A stretch of 5,577 nucleotides of DNA from Escherichia phage G4. The notes beneath the pieces are model-generated. The model saw nothing but the letters and a program-made list of their open reading frames with translations, made no database searches and had not been told where the DNA came from. Location of the stretch: the sequence record NC_001420.2; one strand, given 5' to 3'. Both the position numbers and the translations under genes were made by a program. This document shows positions 59-5,577 of the stretch, piece by piece; positions within the stretch are counted from its first letter, which is position 1; every line of letters begins with the position of its first letter.

Positions 59-1723
59 ATGTTTAAAGTACATTCTGACTACTTCAGCAAACCTAACATC
101 GACGCAATCAAACCTCTCGTCGAAACTGCTGGTATGTCTGTTCTTACTCAATCTCCAAACCTCCGTATCTGGAAACAGTGCAATACTCGCATCAAATTAC
201 TGGAAGAAATCCTTGCTCACTATACAAATGGTATTCGCCGTGACGACAATGGTGACTTCTGGATGAATCCCAACTCTCAACTCGCAACTACTATTGCCTA
301 TCGTGCTCATCACAAAGGCCATAACCCTAAGTTCAAACAATACCCAGAAACCTTCACTCTGGACGACATTATTACTGGTAAACCAATCCCTCAAACTGCC
401 CCTGACGAATTACAACTCTCCGATGAAATCGTTGAAGACTATCGCCTTACAGTCCTCTCCATAATCGAAGAATTGCAAGAATGCTATGACGTGCTCGGAC
501 AACTTGATATTAATAACACTATAGACCACAAACCCCTCGGTAATGACCATTGGAACCTCCTCTATGAAAAACCCGTATACAAACATTGGTATCAGCTCGT
601 TTCAAATCGACCCCTTAAAGATATCCGCGCCGATTACAACTATGCAAAGGCTAAGGGTGTTAAAGATGAGTGCTCAAAAATCTTGGAGGAGTCAACTATG
701 AAGTCTCGACGTGGCTTTACCGTTCAAAGATTAATGAATGCTATGCGTACTGCCCATTCTAAGGGCTGGTATGTCGTATTCGATACTCTTACTCTAGCCG
801 ATGACCGCTTAAAGGATTTCTATGATAATCCCAATGCTCTTCGTGACTACTTCCGTGATATTGGTCGTATGGTGCTTACTGCCGAAGGTCGCTCGGTGCA
901 TGACTCATCTTCCGACTGCTATCAGTATTTTTGTGTGCCAGAGTATGGTACACAGCACGGTCGTCTACATTTCCACGCAGTGCATCTTATGCGCACACTT
1001 CCTCTGGGTTCTCTGCACCCTAACTTCGGTAAGCTGGTACGCATCAATCGGCAAATAAATAGCTTGCAAAACACGTGGCCTTATGGTTACTCTATGCCCA
1101 TCGCAGTCCGGTACTCCCAAGACGCATTCTCTCGCGCTGGCTGGCTCTGGCCTGTGGACTCAAAGGGTGAACCCCTTAAAGCTACCTCGTATATGGCTGT
1201 AGGCTTCTACGTTGCTAAATACGTTAACAAAAAATCAGATATTGACATGGCCGTAAAAGGCCTAGGGAATAAAGAATGGAACAATTCACTCAAAACCAAA
1301 ATCAACCTCATACCCAAGAAAGTGTTCAGAATACGAATGTCTCGCAATTTCGGAATGAAACTGTTATCAATGGCTCACCTGTCAGCGGAAACCCTGATGG
1401 AACTGACCCAAGTGGGTTACGACGTGACCCCGTTCAACAACATCTTGAAGCAGAACGCCAAGAAAGAGCTCAAATCGAGGCTGGCAAAGAAATCTGTCGC
1501 CGACGTTTTGGAGGCGCAACCTGTGACGACGAATCTGCTAAAATTCATGCGCAATTTGACCCGAACAATCGGAGCGTCCAACCTACAGAGTTTTATCGCT
1601 TCAATGACCACGAAATTAACAAGTACGGATATTTCTGATGAAACCAAAAACTACGTTGCTTCTGCAGGAATTGCTGTTGCTAACTTACGAATTAAATCGA
1701 AGTGGACTGCTGGTGGAAAATGA
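59..1723 (+). CDS. A: Replication initiation protein A (rolling-circle HUH endonuclease); 554 aa from ATG 59. The ORF track's upstream in-frame ATG at 32 would give 563 aa.
   Basis: Long ORF with HUH motif HFHAVH (nt 968-985) and the paired catalytic tyrosines in [15 protein letters not shown] (Tyr codons at 1208-1210 and 1220-1222), both typical of phiX174-type gpA. The C-terminal half aligns almost residue for residue with recalled phiX174 A (e.g. [29 protein letters not shown]). ATG 59 is preceded by GGAGG (48-52) at 6-nt spacing; ATG 32 has no Shine-Dalgarno (SD) and lies inside the candidate -10 element. Stop TGA 1721-1723 overlaps the gene C start (ATGA). Confidence 0.9.
510..539 (+). 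other. Origin of viral (+) strand rolling-circle replication; gpA recognition and nick site (conserved 30-mer)
   Basis: Exact match to the 30-nt origin CAACTTGATATTAATAACACTATAGACCAC, which is conserved among phiX174, G4 and relatives and lies inside gene A. In phiX174 gpA nicks between the G and A of CAACTTG^ATA, which corresponds to between nt 516 and 517 here. Confidence 0.88.
698..1723 (+). CDS. A*: A* protein, an in-frame internal initiation product of gene A (341 aa)
   Basis: In-frame ATG at 698 preceded by strong SD GGAGGA (685-690) at 7-nt spacing. The product begins MKSRRGF..., matching the recalled phiX174 A* N-terminus (MKSRRGFAIQRL...), and the 341-aa length equals phiX174 A*. 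Expression of A* from this genome is inferred, not seen. Confidence 0.6.
1276..1638 (+). CDS. B: Internal scaffolding protein B (120 aa), wholly nested in gene A in a different frame
   Basis: 120-aa ORF beginning MEQFTQNQ... and ending ...[45 protein letters not shown], closely matching recalled phiX174 B (MEQLTKNQ... [10 protein letters not shown]... FYRF...GYF). Same length as phiX174 B. Stop TGA 1636-1638 overlaps the K start (TGATG). Confidence 0.92.
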
Positions 1724-1808
1724 GGAAATTCAATCTCAACTTAAAAAACTCGAGGTCGTCTTACTTTGCAACCTTTCGCCATCATCTCAACGTGCTGGCA
1801 AAAACTGA
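1638..1808 (+). CDS. K: Protein K (56 aa), small non-essential protein overlapping the A/B end and the C start
   Basis: Not in the supplied ORF track because it is short. Hand translation from ATG 1638 gives [56 protein letters not shown], stop TGA 1806-1808. It matches recalled phiX174 K (…[20 protein letters not shown]…LLCDLSPS…) and has the same 56-aa length. It is in the third frame relative to A and C. Confidence 0.85.
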
Positions 1809-1974
1809 CGCCCTTGACGAGGAGAAATACTTAAATATGTTAGGTGCTCTCCTCAAGGACTGGTTCCGGTACGAAGAACATTTCGTGCATGGTAAACAAT
1901 CAATGCTTGACATACTGAAAGAACGTGGCCTATTATCCACATCGTCAACTGACACAAACCACAAAGGAAACTGA
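1720..1974 (+). CDS. C: Protein C (84 aa), involved in the switch to ssDNA synthesis and packaging
   Basis: ATG 1720-1722 overlaps the A stop (ATGA). Product [58 protein letters not shown]...ILKERGLL matches recalled phiX174 C ([42 protein letters not shown]...DWFRYESHFVHG...ILKERGLL). The ORF-track start at 1702 is a GTG extension and not the real start. Confidence 0.9.
1907..1936 (+). promoter_or_regulatory. Candidate sigma70 promoter for the late operon (PD): -35 TTGACA (1907-1912), 18-nt spacer, -10 TATTAT (1931-1936)
   Basis: Perfect consensus -35 and a 5/6 -10 inside the 3' end of gene C, about 40 nt upstream of the D start. This is the same relative position as the phiX174 PD promoter as I recall it. 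Confidence 0.5.
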
Positions 1975-1975
1975 A

Positions 1976-2434
1976 ATGTCTAAATCAAACGAATCTGCTG
2001 TAGCCTTTCAAACTGCTATCGCTTCTATCAAACTTATTCAAGCATCTTCTGTTCTTGACTTGACAGAGGACGATTTTGACTTCTTAACTCGCGACCGTGT
2101 CTGGATTGCTACCGACCGTTCACGCGCTCGCCGTGCTATCGAGGCTTGCGTATATGGAACACTGGACTTTGTCGGGTATCCTCGCTTTCCTGCTCCTGTT
2201 GAGTTTATTTCTGCCGTCATTGCTTATTACGTTCATCCCGTTAACATCCAAACCGCCTGTCTCATCATGGAAGGTGCTGAGTTTACCGAAAACATCGTCA
2301 ATGGTGTTGAACGCCCCGTTAAAGCCTCTGAACTGTTCGCCTTCACTCTTCTTGTTCGCGCCGGAAACAAAGATCTTATCGGTCACGCTGAAACAAACAT
2401 CCGTGAACAGTTACGCGCTCAAGGTGTCATGTAA
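1976..2434 (+). CDS. D: External scaffolding protein D (152 aa)
   Basis: ATG 1976 preceded by SD AAGGA (1964-1968) at 7-nt spacing. Product MSKSNESAVAFQTAIASIKLIQASSVLDLTEDDFDFLT...VWIATDRSRARR...ACVYGTLDFVGYPRFPAPVEFI.AVIAYYVHPVNIQTACLIMEGAEFTENI is near-identical to recalled phiX174 D, with the same 152-aa length. The track start at 1925 is a GTG extension. Confidence 0.95.
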   Translation: MSKSNESAVAFQTAIASIKLIQASSVLDLTEDDFDFLTRDRVWIATDRSRARRAIEACVYGTLDFVGYPRFPAPVEFISAVIAYYVHPVNIQTACLIMEGAEFTENIVNGVERPVKASELFAFTLLVRAGNKDLIGHAETNIREQLRAQGVM

Positions 2435-2444
2435 AGACCTTTGA
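2154..2444 (+). CDS. E: Lysis protein E (96 aa), nested in gene D in the +1 frame; single-gene lysis protein (MraY inhibitor class)
   Basis: ATG 2154 lies inside D in another frame. Product MEHWTLSGILAFLLLLSLFLPSLLITFIPLTSKPPVSSWKVL...LKPLNCS has the N-terminal transmembrane segment with the conserved LAFLLLLSL.LPSLLI.FIP core of recalled phiX174 E (MVRWTLWDTLAFLLLLSLLLPSLLIMFIP...). Stop TGA 2442-2444 lies 10 nt past the D stop. The track start at 2097 is a GTG extension. Confidence 0.85.
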   Translation: MEHWTLSGILAFLLLLSLFLPSLLITFIPLTSKPPVSSWKVLSLPKTSSMVLNAPLKPLNCSPSLFLFAPETKILSVTLKQTSVNSYALKVSCKDL

Positions 2445-2476
2445 TTTTATCGTCTTCACTTTTAAGGAGTTATGTA

Positions 2477-2554
2477 ATGAAAAAATCAATTCGCCGCTCT
2501 GGTGGCAAATCTAAGGGTGCCCGTCTCTGGTATGTAGGCGGAACACAATACTAA
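2477..2554 (+). CDS. J: Small basic DNA-binding/packaging protein J (25 aa)
   Basis: Not in the ORF track (too short). ATG 2477 preceded by SD AAGGAG (2464-2469) at 7-nt spacing. Hand translation gives MKKSIRRSGGKSKGARLWYVGGTQY, stop TAA 2552-2554. The C-terminus ARLWYVGG matches the phiX174 J C-terminus (…GARLWYVGGQQF), and the short 25-aa form is the G4-type J as I recall it. Confidence 0.85.
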   Translation: MKKSIRRSGGKSKGARLWYVGGTQY

Positions 2555-2562
2555 TCTTTTAT

Positions 2563-2587
2563 GTGGGACCGCGGTCCCACTCTATTT
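2563..2587 (+). terminator. Perfect 18-nt palindrome (GTGGGACCGCGGTCCCAC, 2563-2580) followed by a T-rich stretch (CTCTATTT); candidate partial terminator after gene J
   Basis: The palindrome is self-complementary over all 18 nt and would fold on mRNA as a GC-rich hairpin of about 7 bp. It sits in the J-F intergenic space, where phiX174-type phages have a leaky terminator. The downstream U-tract is short and interrupted, so termination would be inefficient. Confidence 0.45.
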
Positions 2588-2599
2588 AAGGATACAAAA

Positions 2600-3883
2600 A
2601 TGTCTAACGTTCAAACATCTGCGGACCGTGTACCTCATGACTTATCTCACCTTGTCTTTGAGGCTGGTAAAATTGGCCGCCTCAAAACTATCTCTTGGAC
2701 GCCTGGTGGTGCTGGTGACTCTTTCGAGTGTGATATGGTTGGCGCTATTCGTCTGTCCCCTCTTCGTCGTGGCCTCGCTGTTGACTCACGCGTTGATATC
2801 TTTCCTTTCTATATCCCACACCGTCATATCTACGGTCAGCAGTGGATTAACTTTATGAAGGATGGCGTTAATGCCTCCCCTCTTCCTCCTGTTACATGCT
2901 CCTCTGGTTGGGACTCTGCTGCTTATCTCGGTACCATTCCGTCTTCTACCCTTAAAGTGCCTAAATTCTTACATCAGGGCTATCTGAATATTTATAATAA
3001 CTACTTCAAACCGCCTTGGTCTGATGACTTAACTTACGCTAACCCATCCAATATGCCTTCTGAGGATTATAAATGGGGCGTACGTGTCGCTAACCTTAAA
3101 TCTATCTGGACTGCGCCACTTCCACCGGATACTCGTACATCTGAAAACATGACTACTGGTACATCCACTATTGACATTATGGGCCTTCAAGCCGCATACG
3201 CTAAATTACATACGGAACAGGAACGTGATTACTTCATGACCCGTTACCGTGACATTATGAAAGAGTTCGGCGGTCATACATCCTATGATGGTGACAATCG
3301 TCCTCTTCTGCTCATGCGCTCTGAATTTTGGGCATCTGGCTATGACGTAGACGGTACTGACCAATCTTCTCTCGGTCAATTCTCTGGTCGCGTTCAGCAG
3401 ACCTTCAATCACAAAGTCCCACGCTTCTATGTTCCTGAGCATCGCGTAATTATGACTCTGGCGGTTACTCGCTTTCCGCCTACTCATGAAATGGAAATGC
3501 ACTATCTTGTAGGTAAAGAAAACTTAACTTATACCGATATTGCTTGTGACCCTGCACTGATGGCTAACCTGCCACCTCGTGAAGTATCCTTAAAAGAATT
3601 CTTCCACTCCTCACCCGATTCTGCTAAATTCAAAATCGCTGAGGGCCAATGGTATCGTACACAGCCTGACCGTGTCGCTTTCCCATATAATGCTCTGGAT
3701 GGATTCCCGTTCTACTCTGCTCTCCCGTCCACGGAACTAAAAGACCGTGTACTGGTTAACACTAATAACTACGATGAAATCTTCCAGTCTATGCAGCTTG
3801 CACACTGGAATATGCAAACTAAATTTAACATTAACGTTTATCGTCACATGCCTACGACACGTGACTCAATCATGACCTCGTAA
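2600..3883 (+). CDS. F: Major capsid protein F (427 aa)
   Basis: Product MSNVQTSADRVPHDLSHLVFEAGKIGRLKTIS...SPLRRGLA.DS.VDIF.FY.PHRH.YG.QWI.FMKDGVNA.PLP...IDIMGLQAAYA.LHT.QERDYFM.RY...LPTTRDSIMTS is highly similar along its length to recalled phiX174 F. ATG 2600 is preceded by SD AAGGA (2588-2592) at 7-nt spacing. The upstream in-frame ATG at 2561 lies inside a palindromic hairpin, has no SD, and its 13-aa extension has no homology. Confidence 0.95.
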   Translation: MSNVQTSADRVPHDLSHLVFEAGKIGRLKTISWTPGGAGDSFECDMVGAIRLSPLRRGLAVDSRVDIFPFYIPHRHIYGQQWINFMKDGVNASPLPPVTCSSGWDSAAYLGTIPSSTLKVPKFLHQGYLNIYNNYFKPPWSDDLTYANPSNMPSEDYKWGVRVANLKSIWTAPLPPDTRTSENMTTGTSTIDIMGLQAAYAKLHTEQERDYFMTRYRDIMKEFGGHTSYDGDNRPLLLMRSEFWASGYDVDGTDQSSLGQFSGRVQQTFNHKVPRFYVPEHRVIMTLAVTRFPPTHEMEMHYLVGKENLTYTDIACDPALMANLPPREVSLKEFFHSSPDSAKFKIAEGQWYRTQPDRVAFPYNALDGFPFYSALPSTELKDRVLVNTNNYDEIFQSMQLAHWNMQTKFNINVYRHMPTTRDSIMTS

Positions 3884-3892
3884 CGCAACAAA

Positions 3893-3999
3893 GGCCGCCC
3901 CTCTACTGGTCAGATACCTGCCCAATGTGGGGCGGACCGTGCCTACGGAGATACTCGAGTCTCCGATACATGGACGGCGAAAGCCGCCGTCCCTACTGC
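3893..3999 (+). other. Cluster of three GC-rich stem-loops in the F-G intergenic region; candidate complementary (-) strand origin / primase recognition structure
   Basis: Stem-loop 1: CCGCCCC (3895-3901) pairs with GGGGCGG (3929-3935), 7 bp with a 27-nt loop. Stem-loop 2: CGGAGA (3946-3951) pairs with TCTCCG (3960-3965), 8-nt loop. Stem-loop 3: GGACGGCG (3972-3979) pairs with CGCCGTCC (3985-3992), 5-nt loop. A repeated motif GCCGCC..(C)CTACTG follows stems 1 and 3 (3894-3908 and 3983-3998). The G4 complementary-strand origin recognised by DnaG primase is known to lie in the F-G intergenic region and to consist of stem-loops. Confidence 0.6.
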
Positions 4000-4019
4000 A
4001 AAGCCAAAAGGACTAACAT

Positions 4020-4553
4020 ATGTTCCAGAAATTCATTTCTAAGCACAATGCTCCAATTAACTCTACTCAGCTTGCTGCTACTAAAACCCCAGCTGTAGCG
4101 GCACCTGTTTTATCTGTGCCTAACTTAAGTCGCTCTACTATTCTAATCAATGCAACAACCACAGCCGTTACAACTCATTCAGGCTTGTGCCATGTTGTTC
4201 GCATTGATGAAACAAACCCAACAAATCATCACGCTCTATCTATTGCAGGTTCGTTATCAAACGTCCCTGCTGATATGATTGCTTTTGCCATTCGTTTTGA
4301 GGTCGCTGATGGCGTCGTTCCTACTGCCGTCCCGGCCTTATACGACGTCTATCCAATCGAAACCTTCAATAACGGCAAAGCAATCTCATTTAAAGATGCT
4401 GTTACCATCGACTCACATCCCCGCACCGTCGGTAACGACGTTTATGCGGGAATCATGCTCTGGTCTAACGCTTGGACCGCCTCTACTATCTCTGGCGTCC
4501 TCTCTGTTAATCAGGTAAACCGTGAAGCAACCGTCCTTCAACCTCTGAAATAA
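4020..4553 (+). CDS. G: Major spike protein G (177 aa)
   Basis: Product begins [10 protein letters not shown] and ends ...LSVNQV.....LQPLK, matching the conserved N- and C-termini of recalled phiX174 G (MFQTFISRHN ... LQPLK) with internal motifs (YDVYP, VTID..PRT.GN.VY.G.M.WSN). SD AAGGA (4008-4012) at 7-nt spacing. Confidence 0.93.
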
Positions 4554-4563
4554 GGATTATCCT

Positions 4564-5577
4564 ATGTTTGGCTCTATCGCTGGCGGTATCGCCTCCGCAC
4601 TTGCCGGAGGCCTTATGGGTAAATTATTTGGCGGCGGTCAGTCCGCCGACTCTACCGGAATCCAAGGCAACGTCCTTGCTTCCGACAACAATGTTGTAGG
4701 TGCTAATGATGCTGGTATTAAATCTGCTATTCAGGGCTCTACTGTCCCTAACTCTCAGGAAGCTGCTCCCTCTGCTATCTCTGGCATCCTTGCCGACTCT
4801 GGCAAGCATGCGCTCTCGTCTCTTACCAATGCTGGTGCAAATAAACTCATGGAGGCTGTCGGCCTTTCTAAGTCTGCCTCTGACAAGGGCAAGGACACAA
4901 AAGACTATCTCGCCGCCGCATTCCCCGAGCTCAACCCATGGGAACGTGCTGGTGCTGGCGCTTCTAGTCCAGGCATGCAAGACGCTGGCTTCCAAAATCA
5001 GAAGGAGCTAACCAAGATGCAGCTTGACAACCAAAAGGAAATCGCTAAGATGCAAAACGAAACTCAGAAGGAAATTGCTGGGCTTCAATCTATTACATCA
5101 CGCGAAAATACTAAGGATACTGTCTATGCTCAAAATGAAATGCTCGCGTATAACCAAAAAGAGTCTATGTCACGCGTTGGCGCTATTCTCGAAAACACAA
5201 GCCTCACCAAACAGCAACAAACTTCTGAAATTATGCGGCAAATGCTTACTCAGGCTCAAACCGCAGGTCAATATTTTACAAATGACCAAATCAAGGAGCT
5301 TACGAGAAAAGTTGGTGCTGATATTGATGCTGTTCGCGCTAACACTGCACGCACCCATGTAGAAACCGACCGCTCAAAACAGGAAGTACAAAACTCCCGT
5401 TATGCCTCTTCTCAGGTAGGTAAAACCGCTAAGGACGTGTCCAATGCAATTACTGATACAGCTGGTTCTATTGTTGATTATTTTCGTGGTGCTGATCAAA
5501 AAGTGGCAGACGTTTACAACAACTATTTCAAAGATGGCAAATCGAAAGGAATAGAATCCAATCACCGCTCCAAATAA
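4564..5577 (+). CDS. H: Minor spike / DNA pilot protein H (337 aa)
   Basis: Product [26 protein letters not shown]...[24 protein letters not shown]...[77 protein letters not shown]...[31 protein letters not shown] is highly similar to recalled phiX174 H, with a glycine-rich hydrophobic N-terminus and a central coiled-coil-like region. SD AAGGA (4552-4556) at 7-nt spacing. Stop TAA is the last 3 nt of the window. Confidence 0.95.

Follow-up and report, generated by a model that had tools for sequence, protein, structure and literature searches.

The DNA analyzed here is the 5,577-nucleotide (nt) genome of Escherichia phage G4 (NC_001420.2), hereafter the window, and the locus of interest is the junction at which its genes A, A*, B, K, and C run into one another. 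That this junction is the A/A*–B–K–C overlapping gene cluster of coliphage G4, with the anatomy described below, can be stated with high confidence. In a megablast search of a phage collection, the full window matched Escherichia phage G4 AF454431.1 (Microviridae; Bullavirinae; Gequatrovirus) at 99.6% identity over 5577/5577 nt, and 370 further Bullavirinae records covered at least 80% of it. No record in the collection searched was 100% identical over the full window, which may thus be the G4 sequence originally determined in 1978; however, the 21 substitutions that separate it from AF454431.1 include none within 1046–2229, hence the junction region is unchanged, and a second G4 record, GQ153923.1, is 100% identical to the window across 1200–2000. 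Nothing was found that contradicts the identification as G4.

All genes of the cluster lie on the plus strand. Gene A, which encodes the replication initiator, occupies positions 59–1723 (Pfam Phage_GPA, E = 1.8e-60), and A* (698–1723) begins at an in-frame internal start of A. Gene B (1276–1638; Phage_B, E = 2.6e-49), which encodes the internal scaffolding protein, is nested within A in another frame. Gene K (1638–1808; Protein_K matched over 1–56 of its 56 positions, E = 1.7e-18) encodes a leucine-rich, nonessential accessory protein of 56 amino acids (aa), and gene C (1720–1974; Phage_C, E = 2e-38) an 84-aa protein that switches the phage from replication to single-strand DNA synthesis and packaging. 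The coordinates of A, A*, B, K, and C taken from the list of open reading frames (ORFs) agree with the annotation of AF454431.1, and the five products matched in the Pfam scan (A, B, K, C, and D) all exceeded the curated cutoffs. As a side note on gene A, its frame is already open from an ATG at 32, and the records place the start at 59 (62 in ID204 and ID2); start 59 is favored by a GGAGG at 50–54, with a 5-nt spacer.

The overlap of A, B, K, and C is thus real and conserved, but it has been known since 1978. The gene arrangement of G4 is said to have been originally described by Godson et al. in 1978, and gene K reportedly by Shaw et al. in the same year, under the title "Gene K, a new overlapping gene in bacteriophage G4." Fiddes and Godson wrote in 1979 on three systems of overlapping genes in G4 and phiX174 (cited in PMC8227390). 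A preliminary description of this DNA, made from the sequence alone, had recognized in it the classic overlap of phiX174-type phages, a view that the whole-genome match, the annotation, and the Pfam families bear out, the phage being G4 itself. Our result is therefore mainly confirmatory, in that a founding example of overlapping genes is recovered, along with its stretch where all three reading frames are in use.

Gene Overlaps at the Junctions

Two short motifs join the genes of the cluster. At the first, TGATG(A) (1636–1641), the B stop codon TGA (1636–1638) and the K start codon ATG (1638–1640) share one base; at the second, ATGA (1720–1723), the C start codon ATG (1720–1722) is interleaved with the TGA that ends both A and A* (1721–1723), and the K frame runs on through it as the third frame, ending 86 nt into C. 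Taken together, positions 1276–1808 are shared among four genuine genes. The start coordinates modulo 3 are 2 for A, 1 for B, 0 for K, and 1 for C, such that A, K, and C occupy three different frames and B and C a common one. Translation of 1630–1813 in all three frames, which had been proposed as a check, showed neither K nor C to be interrupted by a frameshift or a stop: the B/C frame reads to YF followed by two stops and later resumes as MRKFNLNL, the A frame ends in KSKWTAGGK before its stop, and the K frame runs from MKPKTT to AGKN and its stop with zero internal stops.

Both shared signals, TGATG at 1636–1640 and ATGA at 1720–1723, were thus correctly picked out from the sequence, as the annotation also attests. 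The accompanying statement that A, K, and C all cover 1720–1723 holds as far as the three frames are concerned, but the positions belong to three genes only if the A stop codon at 1721–1723 is counted, and base 1720 is the sole base of the A/C junction to lie in three sense or start codons. Likewise, the overlap of A, B, and K placed around 1638 comes down to the single base 1638, which the B stop shares with the K start and with a sense codon of A.

Two minor observations concern these junctions. The B stop is followed directly by a second in-frame TGA at 1639–1641, giving the pair TGA TGA (1636–1641), and 18 of the 18 genomes surveyed below retain the hexamer T[GA]ATGA, probably because codon 2 of K begins with A and gene A reads GAT GA[AG] there. 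Separately, a GTG at 1702 was considered as an alternative start of C (ORF 1702–1974) and rejected, since it has no upstream sequence resembling a Shine–Dalgarno (SD) element and is annotated in no record.

Conservation of the Junctions in Bullavirinae

We surveyed the junctions in 18 distinct Bullavirinae genomes, namely 12 G4-like genomes (among them ID2, ID204, MG1, and four IMG/VR contigs), phiX174, and five alpha3-like genomes; the four IMG/VR loci are all the matches returned for a protein C query, and the other genomes were taken from GenBank by accession. The overlap of the B stop with the K start, T[GA]ATG, is present in every genome, as TGATG in 17 and as TAATG in ID21, in which the change from TGA to TAA leaves the overlap intact. 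The K frame is open from the same start in all 18 genomes, which span three genera, and the distance from the K start to the A stop is exactly 83 nt throughout. The length of K varies: G4 and phiX174 encode 56 aa, WA2 and ID204 50 aa, MG1 54 aa, and the alpha3-like phages 53 or 62 aa, and the G4 protein is 61% identical to that of phiX174 and 42% identical to that of alpha3. According to the literature, K is restricted to Bullavirinae (PMC8227390).

The second junction is less uniform. The A stop lies in the context [AG]TGA in 18/18 genomes; ATGA is found in 11 of the 12 G4-like genomes and in phiX174 (12/13 combined), and MG1 and 5/5 alpha3-like genomes have GTGA. phiX174 (MN385565.1), in which B spans 5075–51, K 51–221, and C 133–393 and A ends at 136, resembles G4 in its TGATG and ATGA junctions, in its 83-nt distance between the K start and the A stop, and in its 56-aa K, and it is identical to G4 at 38 of the 39 nt of 1685–1723. 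It differs at the other end of C, where C and D overlap by ATGA (C ends at 393 and D starts at 390), whereas in G4 one base separates the C stop (1972–1974) from the D start (1976). The members of Alphatrevirus (alpha3, ID21, ID62, WA13, and NC29) share with G4 the overlap of the B stop with the K start (TGATG, with TAATG in ID21), the 83-nt distance from the K start to the A stop, and a K that bridges the A end and the C start. However, their A stop stands in the context GTGA and is followed by 18 extra nt, and the annotated ATG of C lies 30 nt downstream of the A stop, preceded by an AGGAG SD element; by this annotation A ends before C begins, and the junction lacks any base read in three gene frames.

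Because the annotation of the alpha3-like phages sets the C start apart from the A stop, the ATGA junction with its three frames is, judging from the annotated sequences, characteristic of the lineages of G4 and phiX174 and not of all Bullavirinae; this lineage specificity is one of two modest refinements that our analysis brings to the known picture. With regard to how the difference arose, residues 2–4 of G4 C (RKF) align with the three codons directly upstream of the annotated C ATG of alpha3. On this basis, either an 18-nt indel may have shifted the start, the old N-terminal codons having turned into the AGGAG SD, or C may start at GTG in these phages and be annotated 10 codons short.

Some further details of the C start were noted along the way. 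The C frame of all five alpha3-like genomes is open from exactly the GTG of GTGA (2242–2272 and 2241–2271 in two of the surveyed loci, L019 and L020, respectively), and the 10 codons between this GTG and the annotated C ATG include an RKF/RRF motif. MG1 carries GTGA at its A stop (1632–1635) and its next ATG in the C frame lies 117 nt downstream, for which reason its C is probably started at GTG; its GenBank record lacks A*, B, K, C, E, and J, the annotation being limited to A, D, F, G, and H.

Selection Acting on the Overlapping Frames

The preliminary description had expected strong constraint on every nucleotide of the overlaps, visible as reduced variability at synonymous sites. We measured nucleotide diversity by codon position in an alignment of 17 G4-like genomes (positions 1 to ~2468, 82–97% identical to the window) and classified alleles against the G4 background, with the sites taken as independent and shared ancestry ignored in both the diversities and the allele counts. 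The expectation holds for one half of the locus and fails for the other. Diversity at the third position of A codons is 0.225 in the A-only segment, 0.155 in the A/B overlap, and 0.042 in the A/K overlap, that is, five-fold lower in A/K than in A alone (Mann–Whitney, P = 9e-6), and 0 of 380 A-only sliding windows of equal size are as low as the A/K value. By comparison, diversity at the third position of C codons is 0.237 in the C-only segment and 0.182 in the K/C overlap, which is no significant reduction (P = 0.31); the D/E overlap likewise lacks a significant reduction (0.282 vs. 0.327, P = 0.31).

The alleles show which of the two proteins bears the changes. Among the 24 alleles of the A/K overlap, 13 are synonymous in K and change A, five are synonymous in A and change K, five are nonsynonymous in both, and one is synonymous in both; the 13 and five alleles compare with 61 and 58 possible changes of the respective kinds (Fisher, P = 0.07). 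The most variable class of codon position within this overlap is the first position of A, which is the third of K (0.121). The 40 alleles of the K/C overlap lean against K: 23 are synonymous in C and change K, three are synonymous in K and change C, 14 are nonsynonymous in both, and none is synonymous in both (23 vs. 3 alleles against 51 vs. 57 possible changes; Fisher, P = 1e-6). They include the premature K stops Q34*, Q51*, and K55*, and K is naturally truncated in the isolates WA2 and ID204.

The two parts of K therefore behave differently. In the A/K part, constraint is strong and shared, and the leucine-rich N-terminal half of K is, if anything, better conserved than the tail of A; in the K/C part, C dominates, and the C-terminal third of K drifts nearly freely and is sometimes truncated. 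With P = 0.31 and 23 of 40 alleles that leave C intact while changing K, three K stops among them, the K/C half essentially amounts to the absence of any synonymous reduction that had been named as grounds for refutation. Constraint across the cluster is thus uneven rather than uniform, and this is the second refinement: the 30–40 nt before the A/C junction are almost frozen and the C-terminus of K is nearly unconstrained. Selection is asymmetric between the frames of both K overlaps, as for an overprinted gene. In this regard, a review attributes both K and the C-terminal region of A to de novo overprinting (PMC8227390), and the measured asymmetries, including the excess of K-synonymous alleles in A/K, fit this published view.

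Two residues of G4 K are also unusual among its relatives. Residue 44 is Cys in G4 (1767) and Arg in 15 of the 16 other G4-like genomes, and residue 56 is Asn in G4 (1803) and Asp in 16 of 16; both differences are synonymous in C.

Translation of K and C

The shared stop and start signals make translational coupling a reasonable reading of both junctions. According to this proposal, K would be translated mainly by ribosomes that, having terminated at the B stop, reinitiate one base upstream (termination–reinitiation), and its low output would thereby be tied to the translation of B on transcripts from the A and B promoters alike. Similarly, C would be started in part by ribosomes terminating at the A/A* stop, which would link the synthesis of C, an antagonist of A-driven replication, to that of A and A*. 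We give reinitiation from B an even chance of accounting for most of the translation of K; a substantial contribution of reinitiation from A to the translation of C is a more tentative proposition, to which we attach rather less than even probability.

Several lines of evidence point toward coupling. In both cases the stop and start codons overlap on the same strand (TGATG at 1636–1640 and ATGA at 1720–1723), and both downstream starts have weak ribosome-binding sites of their own, as indicated by the duplex energy with the anti-SD sequence computed for the 20 nt upstream of each of 11 G4 starts. The only SD-like match upstream of K, a GGA at 1627–1629 on the plus strand with an 8-nt spacer, reaches −3.3 kcal/mol, which is the weakest of the 11 starts and the 28th percentile among all genome positions; the GGTGG upstream of C (1712–1716, plus strand, 3-nt spacer) reaches −4.9 kcal/mol, the second weakest, and A, A*, and J reach −8.7 to −9.5 kcal/mol. 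Such weak elements at K and C are as expected of starts fed by terminating ribosomes, and low-level expression accounts for them equally well. The alpha3-like phages, whose annotated C start is detached, carry instead a strong AGGAG SD before C. Beyond these phages, strict translational coupling was demonstrated for 13 of 14 assayed gene pairs joined by ATGA or TGATG, five of them from Escherichia coli (Huber et al. 2019, PMC6728339). Those pairs resemble the G4 junctions in their −4 and −1 stop/start overlaps and in the weak SDs of their downstream genes; they differ in that the upstream frame of G4 also overlaps other genes and that a third frame crosses each junction. Finally, in a phiX174 genome from which all overlaps were removed, protein C was ~6-fold lower, a loss for which the authors suggest the altered 5′ region together with the lost A/C overlap as the cause (10.1101/2020.06.10.143693), and a transcription-level model failed to reproduce the changes upon decompression (PMC11527146). 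The uneven constraint and the lineage-specific ATGA junction described above are useful to the refactoring or redesign of phiX174 and G4 genomes, where decompression lowers protein C.

Other observations weigh against coupling. The phiX174 decompression result is confounded by other changes in the 5′ untranslated region, and the accessible literature on G4 and phiX174 gave no experiment that isolates coupling. Neither single-sequence folds nor the consensus fold of 10 genomes revealed a conserved RNA structure that would back coupling by occlusion. A candidate hairpin hiding the K start, in which AUUUCUG (1631–1637) pairs with CAGGAAU (1665–1671) in a fold of 1600–1760, was rejected: its z-score is only −0.98, the 10-genome consensus fold reaches −1.85 kcal/mol with compensatory changes in 0 of 8 pairs, and in MG1 both arms are changed without the pairs being restored. 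No Rfam family was found over the whole window.

The layout of the promoters also limits what reinitiation from A could achieve. By annotation, the B promoters of phiX174 (4798–4898) lie downstream of its A* start (4497), and the coordinates of the A* start and of the B start both differ by 3799 between phiX174 and G4, which suggests that G4 mRNAs from B promoters would carry no ribosomes in the A frame. If so, reinitiation from A to C would be limited to transcripts from the A promoter or from read-through, and because it would operate only on transcripts that contain an A or A* start, de novo initiation of C must contribute too. On the same reasoning, reinitiation from B to K would be possible on all mRNAs that contain B. 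Furthermore, the alpha3-like phages manage without an annotated ATGA overlap. As for K, the truncations in WA2 and ID204 are natural, the record of ID204 notes that the absence of K changes burst size only 3- to 6-fold, and a complete-mutagenesis study of phiX174 reports that K nonsense variants are tolerated and that no single-gene K mutation lowers fitness (10.64898/2026.07.25.740675). Because K is dispensable, selection for its precise dosing is doubtful.

The alternative that survives best is that the shared signals are mere by-products of genome compression and overprinting, with no role in expression: K and the tail of A would have arisen de novo over older sequence, and K and C would be initiated independently from weak sites. 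We regard this as a serious contender whose probability falls somewhat short of even. It agrees with the review cited above, which calls K and the A C-terminus overprinted regions (PMC8227390), and the two motifs are no commoner in the G4 genome than by chance, TGATG being observed 18 times against 12.9 ± 3.3 expected from shuffled sequences and ATGA 57 times against 53.9 ± 7.2. If TGATG and ATGA are meaningful here, it is not by their frequency but because they are placed at the ends of four family-matched genes and conserved in 18 genomes. The independent C start of the alpha3-like phages, with its strong SD 30 nt past the A stop, the expected lack of A-frame ribosomes on B-promoter transcripts, and the nonessential nature of K all speak for the same alternative. 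Against it stand the B/K overlap kept in 18/18 genomes of three genera, including a change from TGA to TAA that preserves it, the fact that K and C have the weakest SDs of the genome, the strict coupling of 13 of the 14 comparable pairs (PMC6728339), and the ~6-fold loss of C once the junction was dismantled in phiX174 (10.1101/2020.06.10.143693).

A stronger form of the coupling proposal would make the overlap of the A stop with the C start a functional dosing device, in which C would be made largely by ribosomes finishing A or A*, thereby fixing the ratio of C to A; the alpha3 lineage would then have broken the link by the 18-nt indel and made up for it with a strong SD, unless its C starts at GTG and is misannotated by 10 codons. 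We consider this less likely than not.

A Near-Invariant Block Upstream of Gene C

The most conserved part of the locus is a block at 1685–1723 on the plus strand, upstream of and including the A stop/C start. The final ~32 nt ahead of ATGA are almost invariant: 1692–1713 forms a 22-nt invariant run, the second longest in the G4-like alignment after the replication origin, and 1685–1713 is a string of 29 nt identical in G4 and phiX174, the third longest between the two genomes, only the 30-nt origin and one 30-nt stretch within D/E being longer. Among the G4-like genomes, the longest invariant run, at 499–530 (32 nt), holds the 30-nt exact match to the viral-strand origin of phiX174 (4299–4328 in that genome).

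Such conservation could mean that the block is maintained mainly as a cis-acting nucleic acid signal, either the ribosome-binding region of C or an internal promoter similar to the putative btss49 of phiX174 at 129–155, with dual coding as a secondary matter. In favor of such a signal, G4 and phiX174 agree in this block as closely as they do in the 30-nt replication origin, the GGTGG SD-like element lies within the block, whose end is at the C start, and a putative promoter is listed at the homologous position of phiX174 (PMC11527146). Nevertheless, both encoded peptides, that of A and that of K (LNRSGLL.EN), are themselves conserved between G4 and phiX174, and in the A/K phase a change nearly always alters at least one protein, a single one of 237 possible changes being silent in A and K alike. 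Moreover, the block is not conserved in the alpha3-like phages, a promoter scan gave no promoter-like site within it, and the evidence for btss49 is judged weak by the modeling paper that lists it (PMC11527146). A primarily cis-acting role is thus improbable.

Lastly, the notion that K is not a real gene but a 56-codon open frame lying by chance across the A/C junction is scarcely credible and can be taken as effectively refuted: although phiX174 tolerates K nonsense mutations, according to the mutagenesis study (10.64898/2026.07.25.740675), and the C-terminal part of K evolves freely and is truncated in some isolates, the frame is open in 18/18 genomes, always from the same start, across three genera with 42–61% protein identity, it matches Protein_K over its full length, its overlap with A holds 13 K-synonymous versus five A-synonymous alleles with the third position of K the most variable, and the ID204 record notes a 3- to 6-fold effect on burst size without K.

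Other Features of the G4 Genome

Downstream of the cluster, the annotation of AF454431.1 places gene D at 1976–2434 (Pfam gpD, E = 1.4e-82), E at 2154–2444, J at 2477–2554, F at 2600–3883, G at 4020–4553, and H at 4564–5577. The C/D junction is variable among the G4-like phages: G4 has a 1-nt gap (TGA A ATG, 1972–1978), ID204 and ID2 have a 4-nt overlap like that of phiX174 (1971–1974), and WA14 and ID18 have a longer C and a 14-nt overlap (1982–1995). Inside gene C, a near-consensus sigma-70 promoter-like site lies at 1907–1936 (TTGACA, 18 nt, TATTAT; 11/12), in a placement comparable to that of promoter D of phiX174, which is inside gene C just upstream of D. In WA3, WA2, ID12, NC6, and WA6, the D–J spacer (2434–2477 of the window) is 37 or 48 nt shorter, and E is annotated as longer there, ending at 2465 or 2471 and overlapping the J start (2434 or 2440); G4 itself has no such E/J overlap.

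The 21 sites that differ between the window and AF454431.1 (G4 isolate Anc) are scattered over 87–5492. They include adjacent swaps at 1044/1045 (TC vs. CT) and 4097/4098 and close pairs at 2706/2709 and 4966/4969, and these swapped or closely paired differences look like early sequencing differences.

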